Shown here: one piece after another, positions 1-12,364 of the stretch
How the letters are laid out: each line of letters begins with the position of its first letter
Numbering within the stretch: the stretch's first letter is position 1
Source: Nitrospinota bacterium
GTDB lineage: Bacteria; UBA8248
NCBI GenBank assembly: GCA_046581755.1
Contig: JAYGFR010000086.1
Coordinates: 1 to 12,364, forward strand
DNA length: 12,364 nt
Direction of reading: 5' to 3'
Program-made: the position numbers and the translations under genes
Notes under the pieces: generated by a model
Told to the model about the DNA's origin: nothing
What the model saw: only the letters and a program-made list of their open reading frames with translations
Databases searched by the model: none

Positions 1-605
1 CCATTCAAATCGACGCCGATGGAATCCGGCAGCTATTTCCCGAAGTGGACCAAATCCAGGATCAACGCCTCCGGGACGGGGTTGTGGAGATCTGGCTGGA
101 GGTCGCCGCCGAAACCGCATGGGAGCGGTTCGAGGATATTCCGAAAAACCTCACCCTGGAAAAACACATGACCCTGACCGGCCATATTCAGGGCGTCACC
201 CGGATGGCACTCGCCATGGCCGACATCGCCGAGGATCTGCACGGCATCGCGGTGGATCGGGACCTCCTCATCGCCTCGTGCCTGCTGCACGATATTTCCA
301 AGCCACTCGAATGCGAGGCCGACCCCGGCGGGCCGCCGGGCGGGGGCAGCGCCCTCCCCGCCAAAAAAACCGAGTTCGGCGAGAAGATTCAGCACGGTGT
401 CTACGGAGCGCACAAAATTTGGGAAAAAAATCTGCCCAAGGCGACCGAGCTCGCCCATCTGGTGATCACCCACACGCGGGCGAGCAACACCCGCTCGGCG
501 TCCTACGAGGCGTCGCTGCTCTTCTACGCCGACTGGGGGGACTCGGACGCGGGAATCGTCATGGGCGGGGGCAAGCCCTTCGGAGCGCGGTGGGTGGAAG
601 GATAA
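1..605 (+). CDS. HD-domain (HDIG-type) metal-dependent phosphohydrolase-family protein, 5'-truncated by the window edge
   Basis: HD-superfamily ligand pattern: GHIQGV, LLHDISK, QHGVYGAH, LVITH, YADWGD. The frame is open to the left edge (first full codon at 3: IQIDADGIRQLFPEVDQIQD...), so the true start probably lies just outside the window rather than at GTG 45. Stop TAA at 603-605. Confidence 0.85.
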   Translation, partial: IQIDADGIRQLFPEVDQIQDQRLRDGVVEIWLEVAAETAWERFEDIPKNLTLEKHMTLTGHIQGVTRMALAMADIAEDLHGIAVDRDLLIASCLLHDISKPLECEADPGGPPGGGSALPAKKTEFGEKIQHGVYGAHKIWEKNLPKATELAHLVITHTRASNTRSASYEASLLFYADWGDSDAGIVMGGGKPFGARWVEG

Positions 606-636
606 CCGGTATGCCCGGCGGGCGCCGGGCCGGCGC

Positions 637-1908
637 TCAGGCCTTCACGCGCCGATCGGCGAGGCGAAGAATTGCCGAAGCCAACACCTCGGCCCCGGCC
701 ACGATATCCGGAAAGCGCGTAAACTCCTCGGGGGTGTGGGAGAGCCCCTTCACCGAGGGGACGAACACCATCCCGACGGGACACAGGGCGGCGATGCGGC
801 AGGCGTCGTGAATTCCTCCGCTCGAAAGGGTGAGGGAGGCGTGGCCCGTTTCCCCGGCGGCGCGATCCAGCGCCCGCCTAATTCCGCGCGAGGCCGGACA
901 GGGAACGTACTTCACCTTGCGCTGGAGGCGGCTCTTCACCCCGCGCTTTTTTCGGATCCGCCCGAGCGCCTTTTTCATCCGCTCCAGCATCGCCTCGGAC
1001 GCCTTCGCACTCTTGCTCCGCAGGTCGAACGAGATGCTCGCCCCGCCCGGCACGATCGAGTACCACCCCGGCCGGGCCGACATCATCCCGAAGGTCAGTG
1101 TCATTCGCTGGCCCTCGGGCGCGCGGCGCGCCATCGCCTCGGCCTCGACCATGAAATCGGCGGCGGCCATGGCCGCATCGCGGCGGTAGGACATGGGCTG
1201 CCCGCCCGAGTGGGCCGTCTGGCCCTCGAAATGAATGTCGCCCCGGAGCGCGCCCACGATGGTATCGACGATGCCGATCGGAACCTTTGCGGCTTCGAGA
1301 ACGGGGCCCTGTTCGATATGAAGCTCTACGAACGCCTTCAGGGATTTTCGGGGGAGGCGGCATCCGGCCACCCGGGCGGGGTTCCCCCCCGCCAGGCGGA
1401 CCGCCTCGTAAACCGATTTTCCCGTCGGCGGATGAATCGCCGCCTTCATCCCGGCGGCCCCCAGCTGCCCGGCAAGGACGCTGCTCCCGAACGTGACGAT
1501 GCCGCAGGCGGATTCTTCGCCGACGAAGGCAACGACCTCGAGGGGATGATCGTGGGCGGCGCCAACCTCGGCGATCCGGCGCACGGCCTCGAGCGCGGTG
1601 AGCACCCCGGCAGGGCCGTCGAAGCGCCCTCCCGGATTCTGGGAATCCAGGTGGGAGCCCGCCATCACCGCCGGCAACCCCTTCACCCGGCCCTCCTTGC
1701 GGCCAAACAGATTCCCCACCGCGTCCACCCGCGTCCCGAGCCCCGCCGCCTCCATCCAGCCCCGGACGAGTTTCCGGACCCGGTTGTACTCGGGAGTGAG
1801 CGCGATCCGCGCGAGGCCCGTTTTTCCGGCCCGGCCGACTTGCGACTGCGCAGTGAACTCTTTTTTCATGCGGGCGCGGTTCGCCCGGATGGGCTTGTTT
1901 CGGCTCAT
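637..1908 (-). CDS. Zn-dependent M20-family amidohydrolase (allantoate amidohydrolase / N-carbamoyl-L-amino-acid hydrolase / beta-ureidopropionase type)
   Basis: Motifs DAVGN, GSHLDS, GGRFDG, GEE, ELHIEQGP, GQTAHSG..PM..RRDA, SGGIHDA and GLSHTPEE. Length 423 aa is typical of the family. Confidence 0.92.
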   Translation of the reverse strand: MSRNKPIRANRARMKKEFTAQSQVGRAGKTGLARIALTPEYNRVRKLVRGWMEAAGLGTRVDAVGNLFGRKEGRVKGLPAVMAGSHLDSQNPGGRFDGPAGVLTALEAVRRIAEVGAAHDHPLEVVAFVGEESACGIVTFGSSVLAGQLGAAGMKAAIHPPTGKSVYEAVRLAGGNPARVAGCRLPRKSLKAFVELHIEQGPVLEAAKVPIGIVDTIVGALRGDIHFEGQTAHSGGQPMSYRRDAAMAAADFMVEAEAMARRAPEGQRMTLTFGMMSARPGWYSIVPGGASISFDLRSKSAKASEAMLERMKKALGRIRKKRGVKSRLQRKVKYVPCPASRGIRRALDRAAGETGHASLTLSSGGIHDACRIAALCPVGMVFVPSVKGLSHTPEEFTRFPDIVAGAEVLASAILRLADRRVKA

Positions 1909-1955
1909 TTCTTTATTCCGCCGGAATTTGAAAGTCCGGACCTGAAGGGGCCGGA

Positions 1956-2645
1956 TCAGAAAACTTCGTCCTCGGGGTTATGCATCTCGCCCATCCGCTT
2001 GAGAATGGGTGGGGGGAGATCCTCGTAGAGCCCTTTGAGCTCTTTGTTCGTCTCCTTCTGGGTCATCTGGTAGAGGCTGTTCCCGTCCGTGTCGCATTCG
2101 ACGAGGAAGGGCCCGAAATTTTTCACCCGGAGCACCCACATCGCCTGGGCGATGCCCAGCTCCTCCAGCCAGTGCACCGCCTCCACTTTTTCGATGCCCC
2201 GCCCGTACTGGGCGCCGATGCCGTATCCCACCGTGTTGAGGAACACCGCTCCGAGGCGCTTGAAGTGGTTCCGATAAAATTCGGAGGACATCCCCCCCTT
2301 TCCGATGACGCAGCGGACCCCGTACTGATCCATGAGCAAGGGCAGGTGCTTATCGAACCGAAAGCTCGCCGTCGCCGTCACGGCCGAGATCTCCCACTCG
2401 CCCGGCCCCTTCTCGCTCACCGCGGGCGAGCAGTGGAAGGTGACGTTCGTCAGGGATTCGATATCGAGCGGAGGCTCGGCTCCCTCGTCGAAGAGTTTTT
2501 TATAGACTCCGATCCTCCCGGTGAAGATCACCCCGTCGATACGGACAATATCGCCCAGCTTGAGGCGGGCAAGCGCCTCGGCCGAGAACGGCGTTTCGAG
2601 CCGGTGCTCGTCCATCGCCAGATCGGATGAGCTCATATCTGCCAT
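1956..2645 (-). CDS. Fe-S hydro-lyase beta subunit (class I fumarate hydratase C-terminal / L-tartrate dehydratase beta family)
   Basis: Motifs LETP..LKLGDIVRIDG.IFTGR, HCSP, IGKGGM, WLEELG.AQAMWVLRVKNFGP.LV..DTDGNSLY. The ATG at 2645 is preceded by GGGGGA about 10 nt upstream and is preferred over TTG 2663. Adjacent to the alpha subunit. Confidence 0.88.
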   Translation of the reverse strand: MADMSSSDLAMDEHRLETPFSAEALARLKLGDIVRIDGVIFTGRIGVYKKLFDEGAEPPLDIESLTNVTFHCSPAVSEKGPGEWEISAVTATASFRFDKHLPLLMDQYGVRCVIGKGGMSSEFYRNHFKRLGAVFLNTVGYGIGAQYGRGIEKVEAVHWLEELGIAQAMWVLRVKNFGPFLVECDTDGNSLYQMTQKETNKELKGLYEDLPPPILKRMGEMHNPEDEVF

Positions 2646-2667
2646 GCGAATGGATTCCCCCAAAAGG

Positions 2668-3618
2668 TCAACTCACCGAATCGCGGCGGTAATACTCGGT
2701 GAACCACCGCGGGTCCTCGCGGTACTCGACTTCGCCGTCGGGGTGAATCCGCGCGGTGCATCTCCTGAGGGCGAAGCATTGATGGTGGATGGAGACGGGC
2801 ATCCCGCCCGTGTGGGTGTAGGCGACCTCGATGTGCGCGTCCATGACGGCGCCCTGTCCCTTGAAGCCCATCGCGCTCAGGCTGGTCCGCCGGCCCAGCT
2901 CGATTAACTCCTCCTCGAGGGCGGCGATCTGCGGGTCCGGATTCCGGTTCCCCACCACGCGCAGGCAGGCCGCCTCCTTGGCGAGTTTTACGCAGGTGTC
3001 CTTGGTCCCCCCGATGCCGATGCCGACGATGGCCGGCTGGCAGGAAAGCCCGCGCTTGAAAAATTCGCTGATCACGTCGAGATAAAAGCGGCGGATGCCG
3101 TCGATCCCGTCTCCGGGGAAGAGCATCCGGTAGTCGCCCCCGAAGAGGCCTCCCTTGTGAAACGCCGTTATCTCGACCCAATCGGCCCCCGGCTCCCAGG
3201 AGTAGTCCACGGTCGGTGCGTGGATGCCGACGTTGTTGTTGTGGTCTTTCCGCGTGAGCGGGTGGACGCGATTCGGGCGGAGGGGAATCTCGGCCGTCGC
3301 GCGGGCCGTCGCCTCGCGGATGCTGCGCTCGAAGGCGACGAAACCGCCCTCGATGCGCGCCTCGTTTCCGATCTTTGCGTAGAAACGCGGAAGCCCGGTA
3401 TCGGCGCACATGGGACGCTGGTCCTCGTCGGCCACCTCGTAGTTGTTGACGATTTCGAGCAGGACGAATTTCGAGAGCTTTTCGGTCTCGCGCTCGGCCA
3501 TGCCGCGGATGCTGGTCCGGACATCGTTCGGAATGTGAATGGCGGCCCGGCGGTTGAGCTCGAAGGCCACCTCGCGAATCAGGTCGGCGCCGATGGATGT
3601 TCCGGTTGTGACCGGCAT
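2668..3618 (-). CDS. Fe-S hydro-lyase alpha subunit (class I fumarate hydratase N-terminal / L-tartrate dehydratase alpha family)
   Basis: Three cluster Cys in PMCADTG, SCQP..VGIGIGG and QCFALRR; also PLRPNRVHPL, LEEEL and MGFKG. Strong RBS GGAGGAG upstream of ATG 3618. Confidence 0.92.
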   Translation of the reverse strand: MPVTTGTSIGADLIREVAFELNRRAAIHIPNDVRTSIRGMAERETEKLSKFVLLEIVNNYEVADEDQRPMCADTGLPRFYAKIGNEARIEGGFVAFERSIREATARATAEIPLRPNRVHPLTRKDHNNNVGIHAPTVDYSWEPGADWVEITAFHKGGLFGGDYRMLFPGDGIDGIRRFYLDVISEFFKRGLSCQPAIVGIGIGGTKDTCVKLAKEAACLRVVGNRNPDPQIAALEEELIELGRRTSLSAMGFKGQGAVMDAHIEVAYTHTGGMPVSIHHQCFALRRCTARIHPDGEVEYREDPRWFTEYYRRDSVS

Positions 3619-3635
3619 GGCTCACTCCTCCTCCA

Positions 3636-3656
3636 ATCCCCCGCGCGGCGGGAGAT
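3636..3656 (-). promoter_or_regulatory. Intergenic stem-loop immediately 5' of the hydratase-alpha RBS
   Basis: mRNA AUCUCCCGC-CGC-GCGGGGGAU forms a 9-bp stem with one G:U pair. There is no U-tract, so it is more likely a stability or processing element than a terminator. Confidence 0.35.
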
Positions 3657-3665
3657 GCAAATATT

Positions 3666-4442
3666 TTAGCTGCCCCGGGCGCGTTCTCCGCCGGGGGCCC
3701 GGCCCCCGAGAAGGGCCGAGACGAAATCCCGCGCTCCTCCCGCCGCGGCGCGGCGCTTGAGAGCCTGGATGGCGGTGGCCGGGCTGATCCCCTTGGGGCA
3801 GGCCTCGGTGCAGTTGAACTGGCTGTGGCACCGCCAGACGCCGTGCTCTCCGGCCACCTCGGCCAATCGCTCCGCACCTTCCGCCTCGCGGCTGTCGCAC
3901 ACCAGCGTGTAGGCGCGGTTCAAGGCCGCGGGGCCCAGGAAGGCCGGGTCATGCCCCACCATGGTGCAGGCAGAATAACATATCCCGCAGGTGATGCATT
4001 CGATATGCGGGTCGATCCGGCCCCGCTCGCGCCCGAGCGGGGAAATCCGGGCAGGCGCCTGGGCCGCCTCCCCGGAAGGTTCGGCCCATCCGCGCGCCCG
4101 GTTCATCTTGTTGAAAAACGGGTCCATGTCCACCGCCAGATCGCGCAGGACGGGGAAATTCGCCAGGGGCTCAAGGGTGACGTTCTCCCCCAGCCCATCG
4201 AGGCGGGTCCGGCAGGCCCAGCGGGGGCGGCCATTCACCCGGAGGGCGCAGGTGCCGCACATGCCCACCCGGCAGGAATACCGGAATCCGAGGGTGGCGT
4301 CCTGCCCGTTCTGGATGGCGGTCAGCGCATCGAGGACGGTCATCCGCGGGCGCGGTGTGATCGCGTAGGCCTGGAACCGCTCGCCGGGGTCATCGGCCCC
4401 TCCGCCGCGCCGGATGCGGAATATCACGCCGTTTGCCGCCAT
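3666..4442 (-). CDS. sdhB: Succinate dehydrogenase/fumarate reductase-family iron-sulfur subunit (258 aa)
   Basis: [2Fe-2S] SCRVGMCGTC...WAC, PLANFPVLRDLAVD, [4Fe-4S] CITCGICYSAC, FLGPAAL, [3Fe-4S] CHSQFNCTEACPKG. The true start is ATG 4442 (MAANGVIF), overlapping the upstream stop as TGATG. The symbol is family-level only. Confidence 0.93.
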   Translation of the reverse strand: MAANGVIFRIRRGGGADDPGERFQAYAITPRPRMTVLDALTAIQNGQDATLGFRYSCRVGMCGTCALRVNGRPRWACRTRLDGLGENVTLEPLANFPVLRDLAVDMDPFFNKMNRARGWAEPSGEAAQAPARISPLGRERGRIDPHIECITCGICYSACTMVGHDPAFLGPAALNRAYTLVCDSREAEGAERLAEVAGEHGVWRCHSQFNCTEACPKGISPATAIQALKRRAAAGGARDFVSALLGGRAPGGERARGS

Positions 4443-4786
4443 CAGAAAAACCCCCAGGTGACCTTGCGCAGGTAGGCCAGCCAGAAAAAGCCCGCCACGC
4501 CCATCGCCGTCAGCGCCCAGAGGAGCTTCCGCTGATGGCGGGCCGGGAACCCGAAGTCGGTCAGGATCACCTTGAGGCCGTGCATCCCGTGAAGGATCAC
4601 GAGCGCCAGGACCGCCGCCCGGAGCCACGCCTTGTAGGGGTTCAGCACATGGAACGGAAACAGGACGAGCAGAACGACCGCCGAGAGGCGCTGGAGCACC
4701 CAGGCCCACATACCCGGATACATGGAGCGCCACGCCCTCAAATCCCAAAAGGGCGGGCGGACCGGGGGGCCGGCCGGCGTGTCCAT
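4442..4786 (-). CDS. sdhC: Small SdhC/SdhD-like membrane anchor (cytochrome b-type, about 3 TM, 114 aa)
   Basis: GMWAWVLQRLSAV (QR/HR motif), HGMHGLKVILTDFG (heme His and GL.x.IL.D.G motif) and three hydrophobic segments. RBS GGGAGG upstream of ATG 4786. Lies between the flavoprotein and Fe-S genes. The symbol is family-level only. Confidence 0.85.
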   Translation of the reverse strand: MDTPAGPPVRPPFWDLRAWRSMYPGMWAWVLQRLSAVVLLVLFPFHVLNPYKAWLRAAVLALVILHGMHGLKVILTDFGFPARHQRKLLWALTAMGVAGFFWLAYLRKVTWGFF

Positions 4787-4818
4787 TACATTTCCTCCCG
4801 GGCGCGTCGTTTCATGTC

Positions 4819-6567
4819 TCAATCCACAAACGATTCGGGCGCCGTCGGGGCGGACGCCTGGTCCATGCCCGGCTCGACCCGCGTGAAGCGGACGGGCCGG
4901 CGCTCGACGGCAGCCTCCCCCTCCCGCTTCGATATGAAAACATTGTACAGCCCATCGCCGTTTGTTTCCGGAATATCGTCCCGGTAGTGGCTGCCCCGGC
5001 TTTCGTCCCGCTCGATGGCGCTTCGTGCGATCAGCTTCGCGGTGGCGATTTGATTGCGCACGTCGAGCACATTTTGCCACGCCAGGTTGTAGGCACGGCC
5101 GCTCCCGCCCCGGGCCGCCGCCGCCTGCTCCCCGAGCGCTTCGAGCCCGGCCAGGCCCGCTTCGAGATCGGCTCCGCTGCGCCGGAGGCCGATTTTCTCC
5201 CACATCAAATCCTTGAGCTCCGCCCGGATGGGATAGGGGGAGTCCCCCTCGCCGAGCGCGGCAATTGCGCCCTCCGCCGCCTCATCGGCGGCGGCGCGGG
5301 CGAATTTTTTCAGCGGAACGGCCCGGGCCTCCGCCGCCATGGCCTCACCGGCCACCTCTCCGAAAACGGTGGAGTTCGCCACCCCGTTTCCGCCGAGGCG
5401 GTTAGCGCCGTGGGTTCCGCCCGCATCCTCGCCCGCCGCGAAAAGGCCGGGAAGGTTCGTGCGGCAGACGGTGTCGATCTTCACCCCGCCCATCATGTAG
5501 TGCGCCGTCGGGGTGACCTCCACCGGGCCGCCGGCGAGATCGAAGCCCAGGTCCGCACAGCGATCCACCATCCCCTTGAAATTTTTCCGGACGAAATCCG
5601 CTCCCAGGTGGCTCACGTCGATGAAGACGCCGCCGCTCGCCGTGCCCCGGCCCTCCCGGATTTCGGTGTACCCCGCCCGGGACACGAGGTCGCGCGTGGA
5701 GCGCTCCATCCGCTCCGGGTCGTAGCGCTCCATGTAGCGCTCGCCCCGCTCGTTCAGAAGGTAGCCGCCCGCCCCGCGCACCCCCTCCTCGAGCAACGTC
5801 CCGGTGATCTGCAGGCCATCGCCCGTGAGAATGCCGGTCGGGTGGAACTGGACCATCTCCATGTCGCAGAAATCCGCCCCCCCCTCCCATGCCATCGCCA
5901 TCCCGTCGGTGGCGAGCTCCTGGGCGCAGGCCGAATATTTATAAAATGTGGGGCCGCCGCCGGTGGCGAGGAGGGTACATTTCGCGGCCACGGCGGTGAA
6001 CGCACCGCTCCGGATATCGAGGAGCATCGCCCCGGCGATTCGGCCCTCATCCCCGCTGGCGGGAAGGAGGGAGAGGGCTCGGTACTCTTCGAGGACGGGA
6101 ATGGCGCGGCGGGCGATCTGCTCGGCGACGCGGTTCGTCAGCTCGATGCCGGTCAGATCGCCCTTGTGGACGGTGCGGTCGAAGCTTTGGCCGGCAAATG
6201 CCTTCTGGTGGATGGCCCCGTCCGCGCTCCGGTCGAAGAACGCGCCGCAAACGGTCTCCAGCCTGCGGACGCAGTCGGGCGCCCGGCTGACGAGGAGCCA
6301 GGCAAGATCTTGATCGTTGAGCCAGGCTCCGGCCCGGATCGTGTCCATAAAATGGTTTTCAACCGAATCGCCCTCCGAGAGGGCGACGTTGTAGCCGCCC
6401 TGGACCATGCGCGTGCATCCGCTTTTTCCAAAAAGGCCCTTGACGGCGATGAGGATATCCAGAGAGGGGGCCGCCTCGTAGGCCGAAAGAGCCGCCAACA
6501 GGCCCGCGCCGCCGGATCCCAGGATGAGCACATCGCACTTTCGAACCTGATACGCGGGGCCGCCCAC
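4819..6567 (-). CDS. sdhA: Succinate dehydrogenase/fumarate reductase-family flavoprotein subunit (TfrA-like SGCT signature, atypical active site)
   Basis: Rossmann GSGGAG, QFHPTG, EG.RG.GG.L.N..GERYM, RD.VSR, HYMMGG, GLFAAGE, HGANRLGGN and ESRGSHYR. GTG start with AGGAG RBS. The symbol is family-level only and the substrate is probably not succinate. Confidence 0.92.
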   Translation of the reverse strand: MGGPAYQVRKCDVLILGSGGAGLLAALSAYEAAPSLDILIAVKGLFGKSGCTRMVQGGYNVALSEGDSVENHFMDTIRAGAWLNDQDLAWLLVSRAPDCVRRLETVCGAFFDRSADGAIHQKAFAGQSFDRTVHKGDLTGIELTNRVAEQIARRAIPVLEEYRALSLLPASGDEGRIAGAMLLDIRSGAFTAVAAKCTLLATGGGPTFYKYSACAQELATDGMAMAWEGGADFCDMEMVQFHPTGILTGDGLQITGTLLEEGVRGAGGYLLNERGERYMERYDPERMERSTRDLVSRAGYTEIREGRGTASGGVFIDVSHLGADFVRKNFKGMVDRCADLGFDLAGGPVEVTPTAHYMMGGVKIDTVCRTNLPGLFAAGEDAGGTHGANRLGGNGVANSTVFGEVAGEAMAAEARAVPLKKFARAAADEAAEGAIAALGEGDSPYPIRAELKDLMWEKIGLRRSGADLEAGLAGLEALGEQAAAARGGSGRAYNLAWQNVLDVRNQIATAKLIARSAIERDESRGSHYRDDIPETNGDGLYNVFISKREGEAAVERRPVRFTRVEPGMDQASAPTAPESFVD

Positions 6568-6579
6568 GAGGCTCTCCTC

Positions 6580-7110
6580 TTAAGAAGATTTCGCCGCGAG
6601 CCTGCCGGCGATCGCATCGAGCGCATCGAGCGCCAGCCGATCGATCTCGGCTCGTTCCATGTGCGCGACCGGATGGACAGTGGAGACGATTGGATAGGGT
6701 TCGCTGAACAGGGCCTTGGCCTGAAATTCCCCGGCCTGGAGAAATTCACCCGTCACGACCGGCGCCGCCGGCACCCCCCACCGCTCGAAAAAAGCCGCAT
6801 CGTGCAGACTGCACGTTGTGCAGCTTCCTCAGTAGGCGAGGCCTTCCACGACGCCATCGCACCGCCGGGCGATTTCCTCGGCCATTTCGGCCGGAGCCGG
6901 TTTCGCGTGGGTCGGTTTTTTGTAATAGACCGTCTCGGCCACACCGTAATTTTTCTGGAGCAGGCGGCCCACGGCCTCGAGAAACAGGTCTCCCTTGGGC
7001 TTGCCGATATCGAGCAACCCGATCACCTTGCCCTCCAGGCTCCCAGGGCGCAGCGCCAGTTTTTCGAGGCGGCGTTTGGGTTTTGCGGTCGGATCAAAAA
7101 GCTCGGGCAT
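6580..7110 (-). CDS. UGSC-family selenoprotein (176 aa, Sec at codon 94, TGA 6829-6831)
   Basis: ORFs 6829..7110 and 6580..6774 are in the same frame. Reading through the TGA gives ...VVEGLAY-U-GSCTTCSLHDAAFFERWGVPAAPVVTGEF...HPV..., the UGSC family signature. RBS AAGGGAG upstream of ATG 7110. A SECIS-like hairpin lies directly downstream of the TGA. Confidence 0.9.
6792..6826 (-). promoter_or_regulatory. Bacterial SECIS element
   Basis: mRNA after UGA reads GG-AAGCUGCA-CAA-CGUGCA-GUC-UGCACG-A-UGCGGCUU: an 8-bp lower stem (one G:U), an internal loop and a 6-bp upper stem, with a G opening the apical loop at +20. The core UGCAGUCUGCAC resembles the E. coli fdhF SECIS core UGCAGGUCUGCAC. Confidence 0.8.
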
Positions 7111-8158
7111 TCCTGTCTCCCTTCGTTCGCGTCTTCGCGGTGGCGCTCACCCCGCCGTTTTTATTCCGCTTATCCCCTAGATTGCTGACCGGCCGGGTAA
7201 CCATGTTCGTCCCCATGTAGTCGGCGATGCCGGGCATGAGCATGCTGTATATTCCCCCGGTCCCGCCCGCCACGACTATCGTCAGCGCCTCGGGCGCCTG
7301 GAATTTGCGCCGGGGGTGTCCTCCTTTTTCGCCGGGCATGAGCGCCGCCTGATAAATGACGTTGCGCGTGGCGTTCTTGCTCCACCCGGCGCGGCCGAAG
7401 ATGCTGGCGTGAAGTGGGCCCAGCGCGAGGATTACCCCGCTCGTCCCGATCAGGTGCCTGTCCGCCGACCAGATGGTGCACATCGAGCGCCCCAGGATAT
7501 CCGCCATCTCCTCGGCGCCGGTCACTCCTTCGATTCGAATTTCGCGGGGCGCCTCGCAGGGAAAGAGAGTCACCGCCCCCATCTCCGCTTTCAACCCCCG
7601 ATCGGCGTGAAGCGGCTCCCAGGGGCTTTCTTCTTCGTTCTCGCCGATGCAGTAGGTGTACCGGGCGGGAGAGCCGAACATGGTCCGGGAAATTCCCCCC
7701 GGCCGGGAGCCGCCGATGTTGGCCAGCACCAGCATCAGGGCGCGGCCGACGACCGCATTGCCCCGGGTTCCGTTTCCGAATACGCCGCTCCCGCAGTTGA
7801 TTCCGCCCGCCTCCCGCGCGAGTCCGTTTACGATGACGAGGGGGGACGCGGAATCGGTCATTCCCCCCACCGCGTGGAGGTTGAACTTTTCATCCACCAT
7901 GGCCCGCACGCACGCCGCGACCAGCGGCATGTGCTCGGGCGCGCAGCCCGCCATGACGGCGTTGATGGCGACCTTCTCCGCCGTGGCGTCGCCGTAGTTG
8001 GGCGCTACCTCTCCCATAATCTCATCCGGCGCGAGCCCAGCCGCCCGGAGGAGAGCGTTCACCTTCTCCCGCGTCGGCGGGACGACGGGAAGGCCGTCGG
8101 TCCATCCTTTTTCGTAATAAGCCTCGACGAGATCGTTCTCGTCCCGCTCGAAGGGCAT
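7094..8158 (-). CDS. Conserved uncharacterised protein of the 'GWTDGLPVVPPT' family, a UGSC-selenoprotein partner (354 aa)
   Basis: Motifs GWTDGLPVVPPT, ATAEKVAINAVMAGC.P, PLVIVNG, NAVVGRAL.L.L.NIGG, G.P.RYT.CIGENEEESPWEPLH..RG and IVVAGG. From recall, this family commonly neighbours or fuses with UGSC proteins. ATG 8158 has RBS GGGAG. The stop overlaps the UGSC start by 17 nt. Confidence 0.82.
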   Translation of the reverse strand: MPFERDENDLVEAYYEKGWTDGLPVVPPTREKVNALLRAAGLAPDEIMGEVAPNYGDATAEKVAINAVMAGCAPEHMPLVAACVRAMVDEKFNLHAVGGMTDSASPLVIVNGLAREAGGINCGSGVFGNGTRGNAVVGRALMLVLANIGGSRPGGISRTMFGSPARYTYCIGENEEESPWEPLHADRGLKAEMGAVTLFPCEAPREIRIEGVTGAEEMADILGRSMCTIWSADRHLIGTSGVILALGPLHASIFGRAGWSKNATRNVIYQAALMPGEKGGHPRRKFQAPEALTIVVAGGTGGIYSMLMPGIADYMGTNMVTRPVSNLGDKRNKNGGVSATAKTRTKGDRNARAF

Positions 8159-8211
8159 AACTGCTCCCGATTTTAAAGAAATTGGAAAAAATCGCCCCTG
8201 TCCCTGACCCG

Positions 8212-8242
8212 AGTATGCCCGCCTACGGCCTCGGCATGTCAA
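8212..8242 (-). promoter_or_regulatory. Putative sigma70 promoter for the leftward operon
   Basis: Perfect -35 TTGACA (8242-8237) and -10-like CATACT (8217-8212). The spacer is 19 nt, longer than optimal. Lies about 55 nt upstream of ATG 8158. Confidence 0.4.
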
Positions 8243-8274
8243 CCGCCCGGATAGTACCGACGGGCCCGGGCGAA

Positions 8275-8303
8275 TCGATTCCGCGCCCCGATGGGGGTAG
8301 AAT
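8275..8303 (+). promoter_or_regulatory. Putative sigma70 promoter for the transporter gene
   Basis: -10 TAGAAT (8298-8303), 17-nt spacer and weak -35 TCGATT (8275-8280). Confidence 0.3.
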
Positions 8304-8389
8304 TCGCGGATCGAAGGTTCGACCGGACCCTTCCGCTCCTCACCGGAGTTCCAGCGCCGGATCCGTCCTGAACCCGTGGAGGGGCGAGG

Positions 8390-9793
8390 ATGAGCGCACT
8401 GCCAGAGTCCATTCGCCCCGGCCCCGCTGGCTGGGTGTATGCTGCCCTTTTCGCGGCCCTTTTCCTGTTCCTCTTCCTTCCCCCGCCGCCCGGCCTCTCG
8501 GTCCAGGGCTACCGGACGCTTCTCGTTTGCGCCACCGCCGTCGTCCTGTGGACGAGGGAGATCCTGCCGCCCGGGCTGACCGGCGGGCTCGTCATCCTGC
8601 TCCTGATCCTGACGGGCGCCTCGTCGTCGGTGAACGAGGCCCTTGTCGGATTCTCCCAGCCCGTGATTTATTTTCTCATCGGCGTCTTCACGATCGCCAT
8701 CGCCGTCGAGCGGGTCGGCCTCGCCGAAAGGATCGGGCGGTATTTCCTGCGCTACTCAGGAGGAAAGAGCCGCTCGCTCTTCTGGTTCATGGTGCTCTCG
8801 TTTCCTCCGATGGCGCTGATCATGCCCTCCTCGAACAGCCGCTCCATCATCCTGGCCGAGGTGTTCGACCGCACATTTTCCCTCGCGGGCGTCGAAAAAG
8901 GGGCGCCCCTCGCCCGCGCCATCATGATGGCCCTCCATTCGCTGAACCGCCTCGCCTCCTCCGCCCTGCTCACTGGCGGGATGACCTCCATCGTGGCGGC
9001 GAATCTAATCGGCGGATTGGGCTGGACCCGGTGGTTTCTCCTTCTGGGGGTCCCCTACTACCTGACGCTGTGCATCGGCTCCCTCGGCCTGCATCTGAAG
9101 TACCTTCGCGGCGGGGACCGGCGGCTCACCCTTCCTCCTCAGGAGAAAAAGCCGCTGAACGGCGGGGAGATCCGCACCAGCCTGATCATTCTCATGGCCT
9201 CGCTCCTTTGGCTGTCTGACGCGGTGCACGGCCTCCACCCCGCCGTCCCGGCCATGATGGCCTGGACGCTCCTTCTGCTGCCCGGCATCGGCGTTCTGAA
9301 ATGGGGAGATTTCGAATCCCGGTTCTCCTGGGCGACGTTTTTTCTCCTCGGCGCCTCGCTCTCCCTGGGCTGGACGCTGGCCCATACCGGGGCGGCGAAA
9401 TGGCTGGCGCTGAGCCTCCTCCATCTGGCCCCGGCCCTCGCCGGGCACCCCTATTTTCTCTTCGCCGCGATCCTGATCGTCAGCGTTCCGATCCGCATCC
9501 TCGTTCCCAACATCACCGGCTACCTCGCCATCACCATCCCGATCAGCATCGAAATCGGACAGGGAGGCGGCCTGAACCCGCTGGCCTGCGCCCTGGGCGT
9601 TCTGCTCATGGGCGATTCGATTCTCTTCTACCCGGCGCAGAGCCCGGGCAGCCTCGCCGTCTACGAGCGCGGCCACCTCACGGCGGGCGAGATCTTCCGC
9701 TTCGGCCTGTTCATGACCGGGGTGTCGTTCGTGACCACCCTGACGACCACCCTCCTCTGGTGGCGCATCGCGGGGTTGGACTGGCTCCAGTAG
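8390..9793 (+). CDS. DASS/SLC13-family anion transporter (Na+:dicarboxylate/sulfate symporter or CitT/TtdT-like antiporter)
   Basis: 467 aa, highly hydrophobic. Motifs GFSQPVIYFLIG.F.I..A....GLAERI, MPSSNSR hairpin, SSALLTGG, LW.....HG, LPGIGVL.W......W.TFFLLGA.LSLG..L..TGAAKWLA and YPAQS......Y..G. RBS GGAGG/GAGG. Confidence 0.9.
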   Translation: MSALPESIRPGPAGWVYAALFAALFLFLFLPPPPGLSVQGYRTLLVCATAVVLWTREILPPGLTGGLVILLLILTGASSSVNEALVGFSQPVIYFLIGVFTIAIAVERVGLAERIGRYFLRYSGGKSRSLFWFMVLSFPPMALIMPSSNSRSIILAEVFDRTFSLAGVEKGAPLARAIMMALHSLNRLASSALLTGGMTSIVAANLIGGLGWTRWFLLLGVPYYLTLCIGSLGLHLKYLRGGDRRLTLPPQEKKPLNGGEIRTSLIILMASLLWLSDAVHGLHPAVPAMMAWTLLLLPGIGVLKWGDFESRFSWATFFLLGASLSLGWTLAHTGAAKWLALSLLHLAPALAGHPYFLFAAILIVSVPIRILVPNITGYLAITIPISIEIGQGGGLNPLACALGVLLMGDSILFYPAQSPGSLAVYERGHLTAGEIFRFGLFMTGVSFVTTLTTTLLWWRIAGLDWLQ

Positions 9794-9828
9794 GCGAAAT
9801 CGGTCGGGGGACCGCCCCCGCGCCCGGC

Positions 9829-11019
9829 CTAGATGCGCATGAACTTCATGGGAAATTTCTGGAGCGAGCGGGCGCCGTTTTTCGTCACCTCGACGAGGTT
9901 GCCCACCTGAAGGCCGCGCTTGCTGTCCGGGGTGACGAGGTTGGGCTGGATCACCATGAGCATCCCCTCCCGGAAAACGATTTCGTTCTGGGGCCGTTCG
10001 ATGAGGGTGGCATCGACATCCACGCGCGGGTTTTCGATGAGCAGCCCCCAGCCGTGGAAGGTCGTGTCGAAGGTGGTGAAGCCTTCCTCGCCGATGATCG
10101 ACCCCGCCCGTCGCACATCGTCCTGATTCGCGCCGGGTTTGACCGCCCGGAGAATCCGCTCGTAGGCCTCAACCGCCACCTCGTAGAGCCGCCGGTAAAC
10201 GGGGGTGGGGCCTGCGCCCGCCGATATCGGGCGGTGGGCCTGGCCCGAATGCATGTGATAGCCGGCCGAGAGTTCGGTCAGCACGATGTCGCCCTTTCGG
10301 GTCCTCCGGTGGGTGGGAAACTGGTTCGGAAAGATCAGGTGAGGCCGCGCCATCGAGGTGGAACCGATGAAGATGAGCTGTTGCCCGCCGCCGCTGGGCA
10401 TGTAAGCGTTCGATACGATCGCCGCCAGCTCGTAGTCGGTCATGCCGGGCCGGGCCATTTTCTCAAGCGCCTCGAACGCCATGTCGGTCAGGGCGGCGCC
10501 TCGCCGGAACCACTTGAGTTCTTCCTTGCTCTTCACGGCGCGGACCTCGTGGAGGAGTTCCGTCGCCTCGGCGAACGAGGCCCCCGGGAGCGCCCGCCGC
10601 CAGTGGTCCATCACGCTGAAGGGGATCGAGGTCTTCAAAATTCCCCGGTAACCGACCACGCCGATCGCCCCCTTCTCGAGGCCCAGCTCGCGGATGCGCC
10701 GCTCCACCTTGGCCCCCGGATCGTAATCGACCGCCTCGGTGCGTCCGAAAACGCTCATCTGCTTCGCGTAGGGCAGGTAGAGCCTGTTCGAGATATACAG
10801 GGCAGGCGCCCCCTTCAGGGGGAAGACGGCGAAGCTGCTGACCGGGTCCTGGTAGTTCGTCACGTATTTGATACTGGCCTGATTTCCCCCGTGGCTTCCC
10901 GAATCGCCGTACATGACGAGAACGTCGAGCCCCCGCGCGCGCATCCGTTTACGAATCTCGCGGTAGCGGCGGCTGTATTCCTCTTTCGGGAAGCGGGGAT
11001 GATCCTTCGCGGCGGACAT
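9829..11019 (-). CDS. M24 (Xaa-Pro aminopeptidase/creatinase) family hydrolase, creatinase-like with metal ligands degenerate (396 aa)
   Basis: N-terminal FPKEEYSRRY..IR..M...GLD.L creatinase_N pattern; VRAVKS.EEL, RPGMTDYEL, KGDIVL.E, FHGWGL and FREGM..VIQPN. The ATG at 11019 has RBS AAGGAG and is preferred over 11046. Confidence 0.88.
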   Translation of the reverse strand: MSAAKDHPRFPKEEYSRRYREIRKRMRARGLDVLVMYGDSGSHGGNQASIKYVTNYQDPVSSFAVFPLKGAPALYISNRLYLPYAKQMSVFGRTEAVDYDPGAKVERRIRELGLEKGAIGVVGYRGILKTSIPFSVMDHWRRALPGASFAEATELLHEVRAVKSKEELKWFRRGAALTDMAFEALEKMARPGMTDYELAAIVSNAYMPSGGGQQLIFIGSTSMARPHLIFPNQFPTHRRTRKGDIVLTELSAGYHMHSGQAHRPISAGAGPTPVYRRLYEVAVEAYERILRAVKPGANQDDVRRAGSIIGEEGFTTFDTTFHGWGLLIENPRVDVDATLIERPQNEIVFREGMLMVIQPNLVTPDSKRGLQVGNLVEVTKNGARSLQKFPMKFMRI

Positions 11020-11030
11020 TCGGCGATTCT

Positions 11031-11062
11031 CCTTCTTGCATTCCAACCTTCTTGCATTCCAA
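11031..11062. repeat. Perfect 16-bp tandem direct repeat CCTTCTTGCATTCCAA x2
   Basis: Positions 11031-11046 and 11047-11062 are identical. The repeat lies between the terminator and the M24 gene RBS. Confidence 0.9.
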
Positions 11063-11097
11063 AAAAAAACGCGGGGGGCCGTCTCCGGCCCCCCGCG
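11061..11097 (-). terminator. Rho-independent terminator after the ABC substrate-binding protein gene
   Basis: Minus strand CGCGGGGGGCCG-GAGA-CGGCCCCCCGCG followed by T9: a perfect 12-bp GC stem with a GNRA tetraloop, 25 nt after the stop codon. Confidence 0.9.
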
Positions 11098-11122
11098 CGC
11101 GCATGCTGTGTTCGGATGCGTC

Positions 11123-12364
11123 CTAGTTCGACGCCTTCATGCTGATCTCCCACGGATAGAGCGTCTCGTCGTGCCGGGGAGTCCAGTTGATGCGGTTGCT
11201 GTAGCCGAGCACGTCGTGAATCTTCGCCACGACCTTGGCCGTCGCTTTTGCCTTCGTCATCCCGACTACCTTGTCATATTCTATCCACTGCTGTTTGGGA
11301 TCGGCGGTCGCATTCGCCTTCATCACCTGAGCGTCGATATCCTTGAAGCAGTGACCGCTCCAGGAGCCGCCGCACATTGTCGTGCCTGAGAACAGGAGGC
11401 CCGGCTCGCCGCCGCCATTGCCGAATCCCATGTAGTACATCGCGGCGCCCTTGCGTTTTCCTGCCTGGTAGGCGCGGTGATACTTCTTGAAGAGCGGGAA
11501 GCGCTGGGAGTTGCAGGTGGTGTCGATCTTTATCTTCTTGAGCATTCCGGCGATGGCCTCACACGTCGGCTTATCGCCCGGGTAGCGGCCGTTCGTCGCG
11601 ATGAGCTCGGCCTTGAAGCCGTTGGCGAAACCTGCTTCATTCATCAGGCTCTTCGCCTTCGCCACATCGTAGCCCCACCACTTGCGCTTCGGATTATAGC
11701 CCGAGAAGTTCCAGGGATGGAGTTGGCCGCCGATGGCATCGGCGCGCCCGCCCAGGATCGTCTTGCGGATGAGCGCATCGTCGATGGCAAAGTTGACCGC
11801 GAGGCGCACCTTCCGGTTCGCGAACGGGCCGCCGTGCTTGGTGAAAAAGCTCAGGAACATGATCCGGACGGCCGGAACCGCTTTCACGTTCGTTTTCGGG
11901 TTCTTCTCAAGGGCCGCTACATACTGCGGAAGAACGCCCCAGGCAACATCGACCTCGCCGGCTTCAAGCGCCTTCACGCGCGTCGCCGCTTCCTTGATTC
12001 GCCTGAGGACAACCGTATTTGGCATATCGGGAAACTGCTTCCTGCCCCACCACTTCTTATTCGCCACGAACACCATCTTGTTGCCCTTGGTCCAGGACTT
12101 GAGCACATAGGGGCCCGAGCCGTAGGTGTTCCGCGAAAGGTGGGCCTTCTTCTTGCCCTTGGCATTGAGGCTCATCAGGCCCGCCCAGCGGCTGACCCGG
12201 GACAGGACGCCGTTATCGTGCGTCTTGTTGTGCCAGATGAAGGTCTTATCGTCGATGATCTCAATCCGGTCGAAGGAGGCAAAATACTTCTTCTGACGCG
12301 CGGCCTTGAGCACGCGGCTGATCGACCAGACCATCGCCTGCGAGGTGACGGGCGAGCCGTCGGC
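11123..12364 (-). CDS. ABC transporter substrate-binding protein, family 5 (DppA/OppA/NikA-like), 5'-truncated by the window edge
   Basis: Motifs GSGPYVLKSW, N..WWG, EAATRV.AL.AGEVD, PFANRKVRLAVNFAID, YDVAKAK.L..EAG and EAIA.ML.KI.I. The frame is open to the right edge (ADGSPVTSQAMVWS matches the DG.P.T..DV..S consensus), so ATG 12334 is internal. Confidence 0.92.
   Translation of the reverse strand, partial: ADGSPVTSQAMVWSISRVLKAARQKKYFASFDRIEIIDDKTFIWHNKTHDNGVLSRVSRWAGLMSLNAKGKKKAHLSRNTYGSGPYVLKSWTKGNKMVFVANKKWWGRKQFPDMPNTVVLRRIKEAATRVKALEAGEVDVAWGVLPQYVAALEKNPKTNVKAVPAVRIMFLSFFTKHGGPFANRKVRLAVNFAIDDALIRKTILGGRADAIGGQLHPWNFSGYNPKRKWWGYDVAKAKSLMNEAGFANGFKAELIATNGRYPGDKPTCEAIAGMLKKIKIDTTCNSQRFPLFKKYHRAYQAGKRKGAAMYYMGFGNGGGEPGLLFSGTTMCGGSWSGHCFKDIDAQVMKANATADPKQQWIEYDKVVGMTKAKATAKVVAKIHDVLGYSNRINWTPRHDETLYPWEISMKASN

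Follow-up and report, generated by a model that had tools for sequence, protein, structure and literature searches.

Does a tight run of eight genes, in which a selenoprotein gene stands beside look-alikes of succinate dehydrogenase (SDH) and fumarase, encode one pathway, and if not, what does its conserved part do? The question is raised by a 12,364-nt stretch of DNA (hereafter the window) from a Nitrospinota bacterium (GenBank assembly GCA_046581755.1, contig JAYGFR010000086.1, positions 1 to 12,364), whose genome is 96.5% complete. Gene calls together with Pfam and NCBIfam families gave eight minus-strand genes in one run and a divergent plus-strand gene for a DASS-type anion transporter. 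The gaps between successive genes, from the partner gene of the UGSC selenoprotein to the M20 amidase gene, are -17, 12, 32, -1, 47, 28, and 47 nt (that between the two hydratase genes varies with the choice of the beta start codon), just as an earlier, sequence-only reading of this DNA had described. That reading had taken all eight genes for a single pathway acting on a succinate analogue. The conserved unit, however, is five genes: those for the flavoprotein, the membrane anchor, the SdhB iron-sulfur subunit, and the alpha and beta subunits of a hydratase. On balance, we favor 3-sulfopropionate as the substrate of this module and regard the UGSC pair as a passenger.

Substrate sites of the complex and the hydratase

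The SdhA-family flavoprotein (positions 4819 to 6567; all five core genes are on the minus strand) is the predicted 3-sulfopropionate dehydrogenase subunit. With residues numbered by alignment to Escherichia coli SdhA, cysteine replaces the histidine that binds flavin adenine dinucleotide (FAD) covalently (E. coli H45), glutamate replaces Thr254, and glycine replaces Ser404; H242, E255, R286, H354, and R399 are retained. Changed and retained residues alike are identical in 150/150 relatives: 28 from relatives of the host (hereafter kin), 44 with a type II and 64 with a type I hydratase (the two clades described below), 2 haloarchaeal, and 12 others. In canonical complex II, Thr254 is a dicarboxylate-binding residue; the cysteine could itself carry FAD. 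In a quick tree of 68 of 161 rows, a very long branch leaves the flavoproteins of kin, haloarchaeal, and type I and II loci together on one side, where the two hydratase types interleave. Because the signature is invariant and the tree groups these copies, one dehydrogenase activity is likely common to all of them. The best NCBIfam model for the flavoprotein, TfrA, scored 551.6 against an equivalog cut-off of 718, NadB (TIGR00551) scored 335 against 452.75, and the SdhB subunit fell under the TfrB cut-off (133 vs. 385).

Canonical SDH and fumarase genes elsewhere in the genome, a point raised by the sequence-only reading, were looked for and are present: contig C48 encodes a canonical SdhA and C323 another SdhA that bears the His, and the genome also has FumC and a further class I hydratase pair whose motifs are canonical. 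The host also has eight more SdhA-family flavoproteins whose active sites are divergent and non-canonical (contigs C193, C212, C63, C225, C306, C259, C309, and C191; L002, L011-L016, and L018), a pool of uncharacterized enoate oxidoreductases.

The iron-sulfur subunit (3666 to 4442) matched TIGR00384 with 199 bits against a cut-off of 88. A C/D pair of anchors had been supposed, but there is a single SdhC-like anchor gene of 114 aa (4442 to 4786; PF01127); one such gene only occurs in 29/29 kin loci that have all three SDH genes, whereas proteobacterial loci have two. The single anchor is predicted to form a homodimer: modeled in two copies with heme, it scored 0.62, the best control 0.00 (pLDDT at least 76, runs agreeing in 100% of contacts), and passed a mark that was reached by 20/30 solved homodimers and 1/23 monomers, although resemblance to SdhC/SdhD pairs of known structure may account for this pass. 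Respiratory complex II (E. coli SdhCDAB, 1NEK; FrdABCD; the Sdh1 flavoprotein, 7D6V) likewise consists of flavoprotein, iron-sulfur subunit, and heme-type anchor, and shares the five retained residues. It differs from the window's complex at the three changed positions, in the number of anchor genes, and in not having a hydratase of its own.

That hydratase is a class I iron-sulfur hydro-lyase, with its alpha subunit at 2668 to 3618 (TIGR00722, 228.9 bits vs. a cut-off of 100.65) and its beta subunit at 1956 to ~2645 (PF05683; start codon uncertain). The alpha subunit shares ~34-35% identity with type I sequences and 55-65% with those of type II, and it clades with the latter at an SH-aLRT value of 99 among 52 sampled rows. 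Like the class I fumarate hydratase of Methanocaldococcus jannaschii (7XKY) and TtdAB, it is a split alpha/beta enzyme, and it shares with the former the cluster cysteines (Cys71, Cys193, and Cys281), Asp62, His257, Thr80, and arginines (Arg102 in alpha; Arg32 and Arg84 in beta), beta Lys104 also being kept. Unlike both, it has Ala61 in place of Gln, Ala81 in place of Thr, and a rebuilt KGxGS loop, in which the alignment column of Gly147 is ambiguous at a 2-residue deletion; its scores are under the fumarase and TtdA/TtdB equivalog cut-offs. The same changes run through the type II hydratases (Gln61 in 85/85, Thr81 in 83/83, and the KGxGS loop in 85/85), in which acid, base, arginines, and all three cluster cysteines remain; type I hydratases retain all nine substrate contacts of the M. 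jannaschii fumarase. Non-polar mutants at Gln61, Gly147, and Thr81 inactivated that fumarase, according to the available text of a preprint (bioRxiv 10.1101/2022.09.03.506457). By alignment, then, the type II clade appears to have lost three residues that are essential in fumarase. The changes fall on both sides of the substrate, and mapping them to one substrate end is therefore not decisive. The type II gene occurs in 26/401 Alphaproteobacteria and 8/401 genomes of a second proteobacterial class; one alphaproteobacterial locus (L102) has both hydratase types beside the flavoprotein.

The sequence-only reading was right that both enzymes are altered in their substrate motifs. The module would act in the manner of complex II and fumarase, with a sulfonate analogue as substrate, yet it falls outside both canonical families.

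Gene company of the module and a proposed route

In a flavoprotein scan of species genomes, the best 80 of 587 confirmed loci, some of them short contigs, contained hydratase beta in 76, alpha in 69, SdhB in 64, and a distant M20 gene in one. The classified loci comprise 64 of type I and 54 non-kin ones of type II (118 non-kin together), as well as 34 kin loci, which bring type II to 88; the kin set includes at least three duplicate pairs. Among genomes of relatives, 29/61 (host counted) have the flavoprotein, and wide regions were obtained for 20.

Recurrent neighbors were found by clustering open reading frames over 100 loci and were counted at ≥40% identity to one representative. In the 80 loci, they were TauE-like (35), ComC-like (32), SuyB-like (30), SuyA-like (28), HpsN-like (6), and YeiH (5), and 50/80 loci had at least one such sulfonate-type neighbor; the names SuyAB and HpsN are what we take these UxaA-family and HisD-family proteins to be. 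The two hydratase types keep different company. A SuyB-like gene adjoins 28/64 type I loci vs. 0/54 non-kin and 0/34 kin type II loci, and with only loci of at least 15 kb considered, the counts are 23/43 vs. 0/60. Among 401 evenly sampled Alphaproteobacteria (the search center included), SuyB-like genes are present in 8/8 genomes with type I, 8/26 with type II, and 18/367 with neither (G217, with type I and a split 50% match, was counted as type I). Of the 26 type II genomes, 12 have no match to either SuyB or Xsc, and 7 of these also have none to TIGR01275, the family containing CuyA.

Islands on type II plasmids hold importers, TauE or YeiH, and sulfite dehydrogenase; that of Pseudomonas MPC6 has an importer, a porin, TauE, the module, MmsA, YeiH, and a SorT sulfite dehydrogenase. 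Neither a SuyB orthologue nor Xsc was found on any of five type II plasmids, in a search that covered the plasmids and not the chromosomes. Full-length MmsA adjoins type II in three records (MPC6 and two Cupriavidus) and 0/64 type I loci, and a 75-residue piece of MmsA lies near type II in Methylobacterium nodulans. The importers of the module in other lineages are TTT, TRAP, or ABC systems. In two haloarchaeal loci, the flavoprotein is accompanied by an argH-annotated lyase of the aspartase/fumarase fold, a UxaA pair, and TauE; this lyase is likely a third hydratase solution. These haloarchaeal plasmids (L155, 10299-14552; L164, 9377-13515) have no Fe-S hydratase and no adjoining anchor gene. 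Two further families recur: a thiamine diphosphate enzyme family without a name, distinct from Xsc, at 34/64 type I and 5/54 type II loci (e.g., L158, 13721-15346, and L162, 4647-6248), and, in four type II islands (L153, L156, L160, and L230), a small NIPSNAP protein 3' of YeiH or MmsA.

Succinate, fumarate, and malate have 3-sulfopropionate, sulfoacrylate, and sulfolactate as their sulfonate analogues, and 3-sulfopropionate arises from sulfoquinovose fermentation, 2,3-dihydroxypropane-1-sulfonate fermentation, and homotaurine use. From the neighborhoods, we infer a sulfonate substrate and the oxidative direction: the flavoprotein complex would oxidize 3-sulfopropionate to 3-sulfoacrylate, and electrons would pass from the flavoprotein through the Fe-S subunit and the homodimeric anchor to quinone. 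The type II hydratase would then hydrate 3-sulfoacrylate at the carbon bearing the sulfur; by chemical reasoning, this would give the bisulfite adduct of malonate semialdehyde; its unaided collapse would yield sulfite and malonate semialdehyde. The most speculative part of this scheme is the carbon to which water is added; if the module does use 3-sulfopropionate, direct release of sulfite has a little better than an even chance and formation of sulfolactate a little worse than one. Direct release would explain the type II pattern of MmsA and sulfite genes and no SuyB-like neighbor. Tentatively, then, the type II hydratase may represent a C-S lyase of a new kind, in which a [4Fe-4S] enzyme of the fumarase fold converts 3-sulfoacrylate to sulfite and malonate semialdehyde. 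It is with the same reserve that we suggest that, together with a cysteinyl-FAD, homodimer-anchored complex II, it could constitute a two-enzyme desulfonation independent of SuyAB, Xsc, and CuyA. The supposition of a parallel module for a succinate analogue holds for the module, with the sulfur option favored; the amide, ureido, and amino options also entertained have no support in the neighborhoods.

No published genes for the conversion of 3-sulfopropionate to 3-sulfoacrylate were found in a search that left aside subscription journals, supplements, and the thesis discussed next. As cited in the available text of a 2024 paper (PMC11489063), the Mayer thesis has Roseovarius nubinhibens ISM degrade 3-sulfopropionate likewise by oxidation to sulfoacrylate followed by hydration; the route as cited names no genes and, unlike our proposal, continues to sulfolactate. 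The same text describes bacterial degradation of 3-sulfopropionate as otherwise unreported, a January 2026 review (PMC12890257) still calls the mechanism in Bilophila wadsworthia unclear, and the accessible portions of PMC11659671, PMC12330013, and PMC13436972 add no genes for the step. In bacterial coenzyme M synthesis, as described in the accessible text of PMC9457059, the fumarase-superfamily enzymes XcbC and XcbD make or use sulfoacrylic acid, XcbC being an argininosuccinate-lyase homologue that makes it; unlike the window's hydratase, these have the class II fold, are biosynthetic, and come without a complex II partner. The sulfolactate mineralization genes (SuyAB with ComC/SlcC and TauE) are found next to this flavoprotein subfamily at type I loci, but the SuyAB genes are absent from the window, and the closest host homologues are only 35-36% identical. 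The SuyAB-linked type I module has the flavoprotein signature of the window and differs in its hydratase type and neighbors.

For the 3-sulfopropionate step, the locus offers candidate enzymes by name together with sequence signatures, and what the window adds to the systems above is the hydratase clade split, the hypothesis of direct desulfonation, the lone anchor gene, and a naturally occurring deletion by which the UGSC pair is uncoupled (below). Two hydratase clades with differing gene company allow a cheap, direct test of a new C-S bond cleavage. This reading also mends a likely mis-annotation as spare SDH and fumarase across many marine genomes.

Alternative readings

Several observations weigh against 3-sulfopropionate and direct sulfite release. 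There is no sulfonate gene in the window or at 34/34 kin loci, and the telling type II neighbors are sparse (TauE at 6, YeiH at 6, sulfite dehydrogenase at 3, and MmsA at 3 of the 54 loci), two of the three MmsA cases being Cupriavidus. A profile search of the host genome found no MmsA over cut-off; it likewise found no Xsc or ComD over cut-off and no match to TIGR01275. The host does have three UxaA-type genes or pairs, 35-36% identical to the SuyB query, in sulfonate-like settings on C75, C331, and C198 (L227-L229): one lies between two Ldh_2 genes, another beside ComDE-like genes, and a third beside TauE and an ABC importer. The haloarchaeal UxaA pairs are equally far from that query (34-36%), and the apparent lack of SuyB in the host is therefore soft; no SuyB-like sequence closer than 40% was found among 41 relatives. 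For the alphaproteobacterial genomes no completeness is given; the kin loci are not independent, and Fisher p-values therefore overstate. Finally, a missing covalent-FAD histidine favors reduction in canonical enzymes.

The first step could be as proposed and the type II hydratase could still make sulfolactate, possibly the other enantiomer, with unlinked SuyAB-like, ComC/ComDE/Xsc, or CuyA enzymes desulfonating it. This branch is a genuine possibility, if a minority one. It is the route of the thesis (as cited in PMC11489063), and the type II locus of Paracoccus versutus has genes for an Ldh_2 (63% identity to its counterpart at a type I locus) and a hydroxyacid dehydrogenase (68%); the host UxaA-type pairs adjoin comparable genes, and SuyB is present in 8/26 and Xsc over cut-off in 18/34 type II genomes. 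Yet no type II locus (0/88) has the SuyB-like neighbor found at 28/64 type I loci, the self-contained islands have MmsA and sulfite dehydrogenase without a lyase, 7/26 genomes match none of the three lyase routes, and ComD is over cut-off in only 3/34 type II genomes. Another succinate analogue, e.g., 3-sulfinopropionate, sulfosuccinate, or a non-sulfur acid, is an unlikely but respectable substrate for the host and most type II carriers: the kin loci lack sulfonate neighbors, the hydratase site is strongly remodeled, and one type II locus has a gene for a 3-sulfinopropanoyl-CoA desulfinase ~9 kb away, a homologue being present at another. Against this, the flavoprotein signature is that of the SuyB-linked copies, the flavoprotein tree mixes types I and II, and type II islands carry genes for sulfite export and oxidation.

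Running the module backward, as an electron sink in which sulfoacrylate derived from sulfolactate is reduced and 3-sulfopropionate exported, would suit the missing FAD histidine, the fumarate reductase TfrA as best (if under cut-off) model, and the HpsN-like genes near 6/80 loci. We consider it improbable: a cysteine exactly at the histidine position could carry FAD, importers and sulfite export or oxidation genes fit catabolism, and the reported 3-sulfopropionate route, as cited, is degradative. It is a shade more improbable that all eight genes form one pathway for an N-substituted succinate analogue, the M20 enzyme removing the N-group and the UGSC protein providing redox or cleavage chemistry. 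Tight gene spacing, one likely promoter, an arrangement intact in three other genomes of the genus, and an M20 gene after the hydratase in G009, of another genus, speak for it, but this pathway is largely refuted by a relative in which the UGSC pair is deleted, and UGSC genes adjoin 0/118 non-kin loci and 4/26 kin loci with at least 1.8 kb of upstream sequence. Least probable is a plain second SDH plus fumarase. The catalytic His, Arg, and Glu of the flavoprotein and the acid, base, and three cysteines of the hydratase are kept, but Thr254 is Glu, the hydratase is changed at the three positions where mutation inactivates the M. jannaschii enzyme, and the genome already has canonical counterparts of both.

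The UGSC pair and the other genes of the window

The UGSC gene (6580 to 7110, minus strand) encodes, with read-through of a TGA at codon 94, a 176-aa protein that contains the UGSC motif and matches PF24696 with 153.7 bits against a cut-off of 25. A hairpin right after the UGA (6788 to 6830, minus strand), likely a selenocysteine insertion sequence element, has a predicted fold of -24.4 kcal/mol over the 62 nt starting at the UGA. The TGA is kept in all 8 UGSC copies of the host genome, which encodes SelA, SelB, and tRNA-Sec. For these reasons, the TGA most likely specifies selenocysteine, as the sequence-only reading had assumed. A sequence search of the PDB gave no real match; a resemblance to GrdB/PrdB may exist. 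The protein is a full member of the UGSC-containing selenoproteins (PF24696, NF041046; PMC2398784), with no difference found, and the family's function is still called uncharacterized in PMC13188914.

The partner gene upstream (7094 to 8158, minus strand; 354 aa) matched no Pfam or NCBIfam family in profile searches. Its homologues number 6312 among 7997 scored sequences, those at 77-80% identity carrying Nitrospinota labels, and 16 tblastn pieces lie in its own genome. PMC2398784 reports UGSC fused to an 'Unknown_1' domain, which is probably the partner family. The AlphaFold model (pLDDT 83) had class I fumarase alpha as its top Foldseek match (E 2e-5, TM 0.24-0.28), and in VIA, the best Z was 4.8, none reaching 5, with class I fumarase alpha at ≤4.4. 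The match was read as a common subdomain only, which gives no function. On another contig (C167; L001, 8125-15433), four partner genes lie in tandem, one of them in two pieces, and an opposite-strand molybdoenzyme gene separates them from their UGSC gene.

Linkage of this pair to the module, which had been expected to recur with this SdhA subtype, is confined to the genus. UGSC is adjacent at 0/64 type I, 0/54 non-kin type II, and 4/34 kin loci, and UGSC, partner, and DASS genes are all absent from the best 80 of the 587 flavoprotein loci. Of the 20 relatives with wide regions, 3 have the pair beside the module, all in the host's genus, and the whole arrangement is retained in three genomes of that genus besides the host. 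The closest relative with its upstream region available (L165; flavoprotein 87% and alpha 93% identical) has the order of binding protein, M24, DASS, the five core genes, M20, and HD intact, but the UGSC pair is deleted: the distance from partner start to flavoprotein start is 157 nt vs. 1591 nt in the window, and the partner is a decayed stub with two stops. In G002, there is no UGSC gene within the 436 nt of upstream sequence available. UGSC matches number 2-8 per genome in 24/24 other family genomes searched, unlinked to the module in near-complete ones (e.g., G011 and G024), and the remaining host copies adjoin unrelated enzymes and transporters. Because L165 and G002 lack it there and because UGSC is multicopy in the family and found beside unrelated enzymes, the pair lies outside the conserved pathway and is probably a dispensable passenger. 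The context had been offered as a functional lead for the UGSC family; it gives none, and a false lead is thereby taken away.

In the window itself, the pair is probably on the same transcript as the module. Two sigma-70-like hexamers 19 nt apart (8212 to 8242, minus strand), upstream of the partner gene, are likely the operon promoter; both are common to the window, L165, and L133 in a three-locus alignment, in which the spacer between them has diverged. A promoter scan passed over this site, as it accepted spacings of 16-18 nt only. No terminator-like site was found in the minus-strand gaps, in agreement with the sequence-only reading, and weak minus-strand matches near 6807, 4961, 4682, and 2298 are intragenic. 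RNA reads from four of 13 runs gave low coverage, at the level of contigs only, and covered the divergent intergenic region as well.

The M20 gene (637 to 1908, minus strand) encodes a hydantoinase/carbamoylase-family amidase (TIGR01879, 349 vs. a cut-off of 204) with the metal-binding motifs of its family, N-carbamoyl-amino-acid hydrolases being nearest; the AllC, ErtE, and PRK12893 models scored under cut-off. It too is a local neighbor, at 9/34 kin and 0/118 non-kin loci, and in G009 it is likewise 3' of the hydratase. Roles in ergothioneine or ureidosuccinate metabolism were dropped, as no specific model passed and partner enzymes were not nearby; a tie via beta-alanine to malonate semialdehyde is no more than a possibility. 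The divergent DASS gene (8390 to 9793, plus strand) passed PF00939 and scored 133 against 198.6 for TIGR00785, its nearest solved relatives being of VcINDY type. It occurs at 5/34 kin and 0/118 non-kin loci, and because it was retained in L165 after the UGSC deletion, it is a plausible local importer.

Farther out, an M24 ectoine-hydrolase-like peptidase and a family-5 binding protein are encoded at 9829-12364 (minus strand), with a strong terminator-like hairpin between their genes at 11069-11098; the binding protein has a 94.6% identical copy on contig C199, and M24 has ~20 paralogue matches in the genome. At the other end, an HD-domain protein (3-605, plus strand) converges on M20, is syntenic in the genus, and has a 65% identical paralogue on C311.

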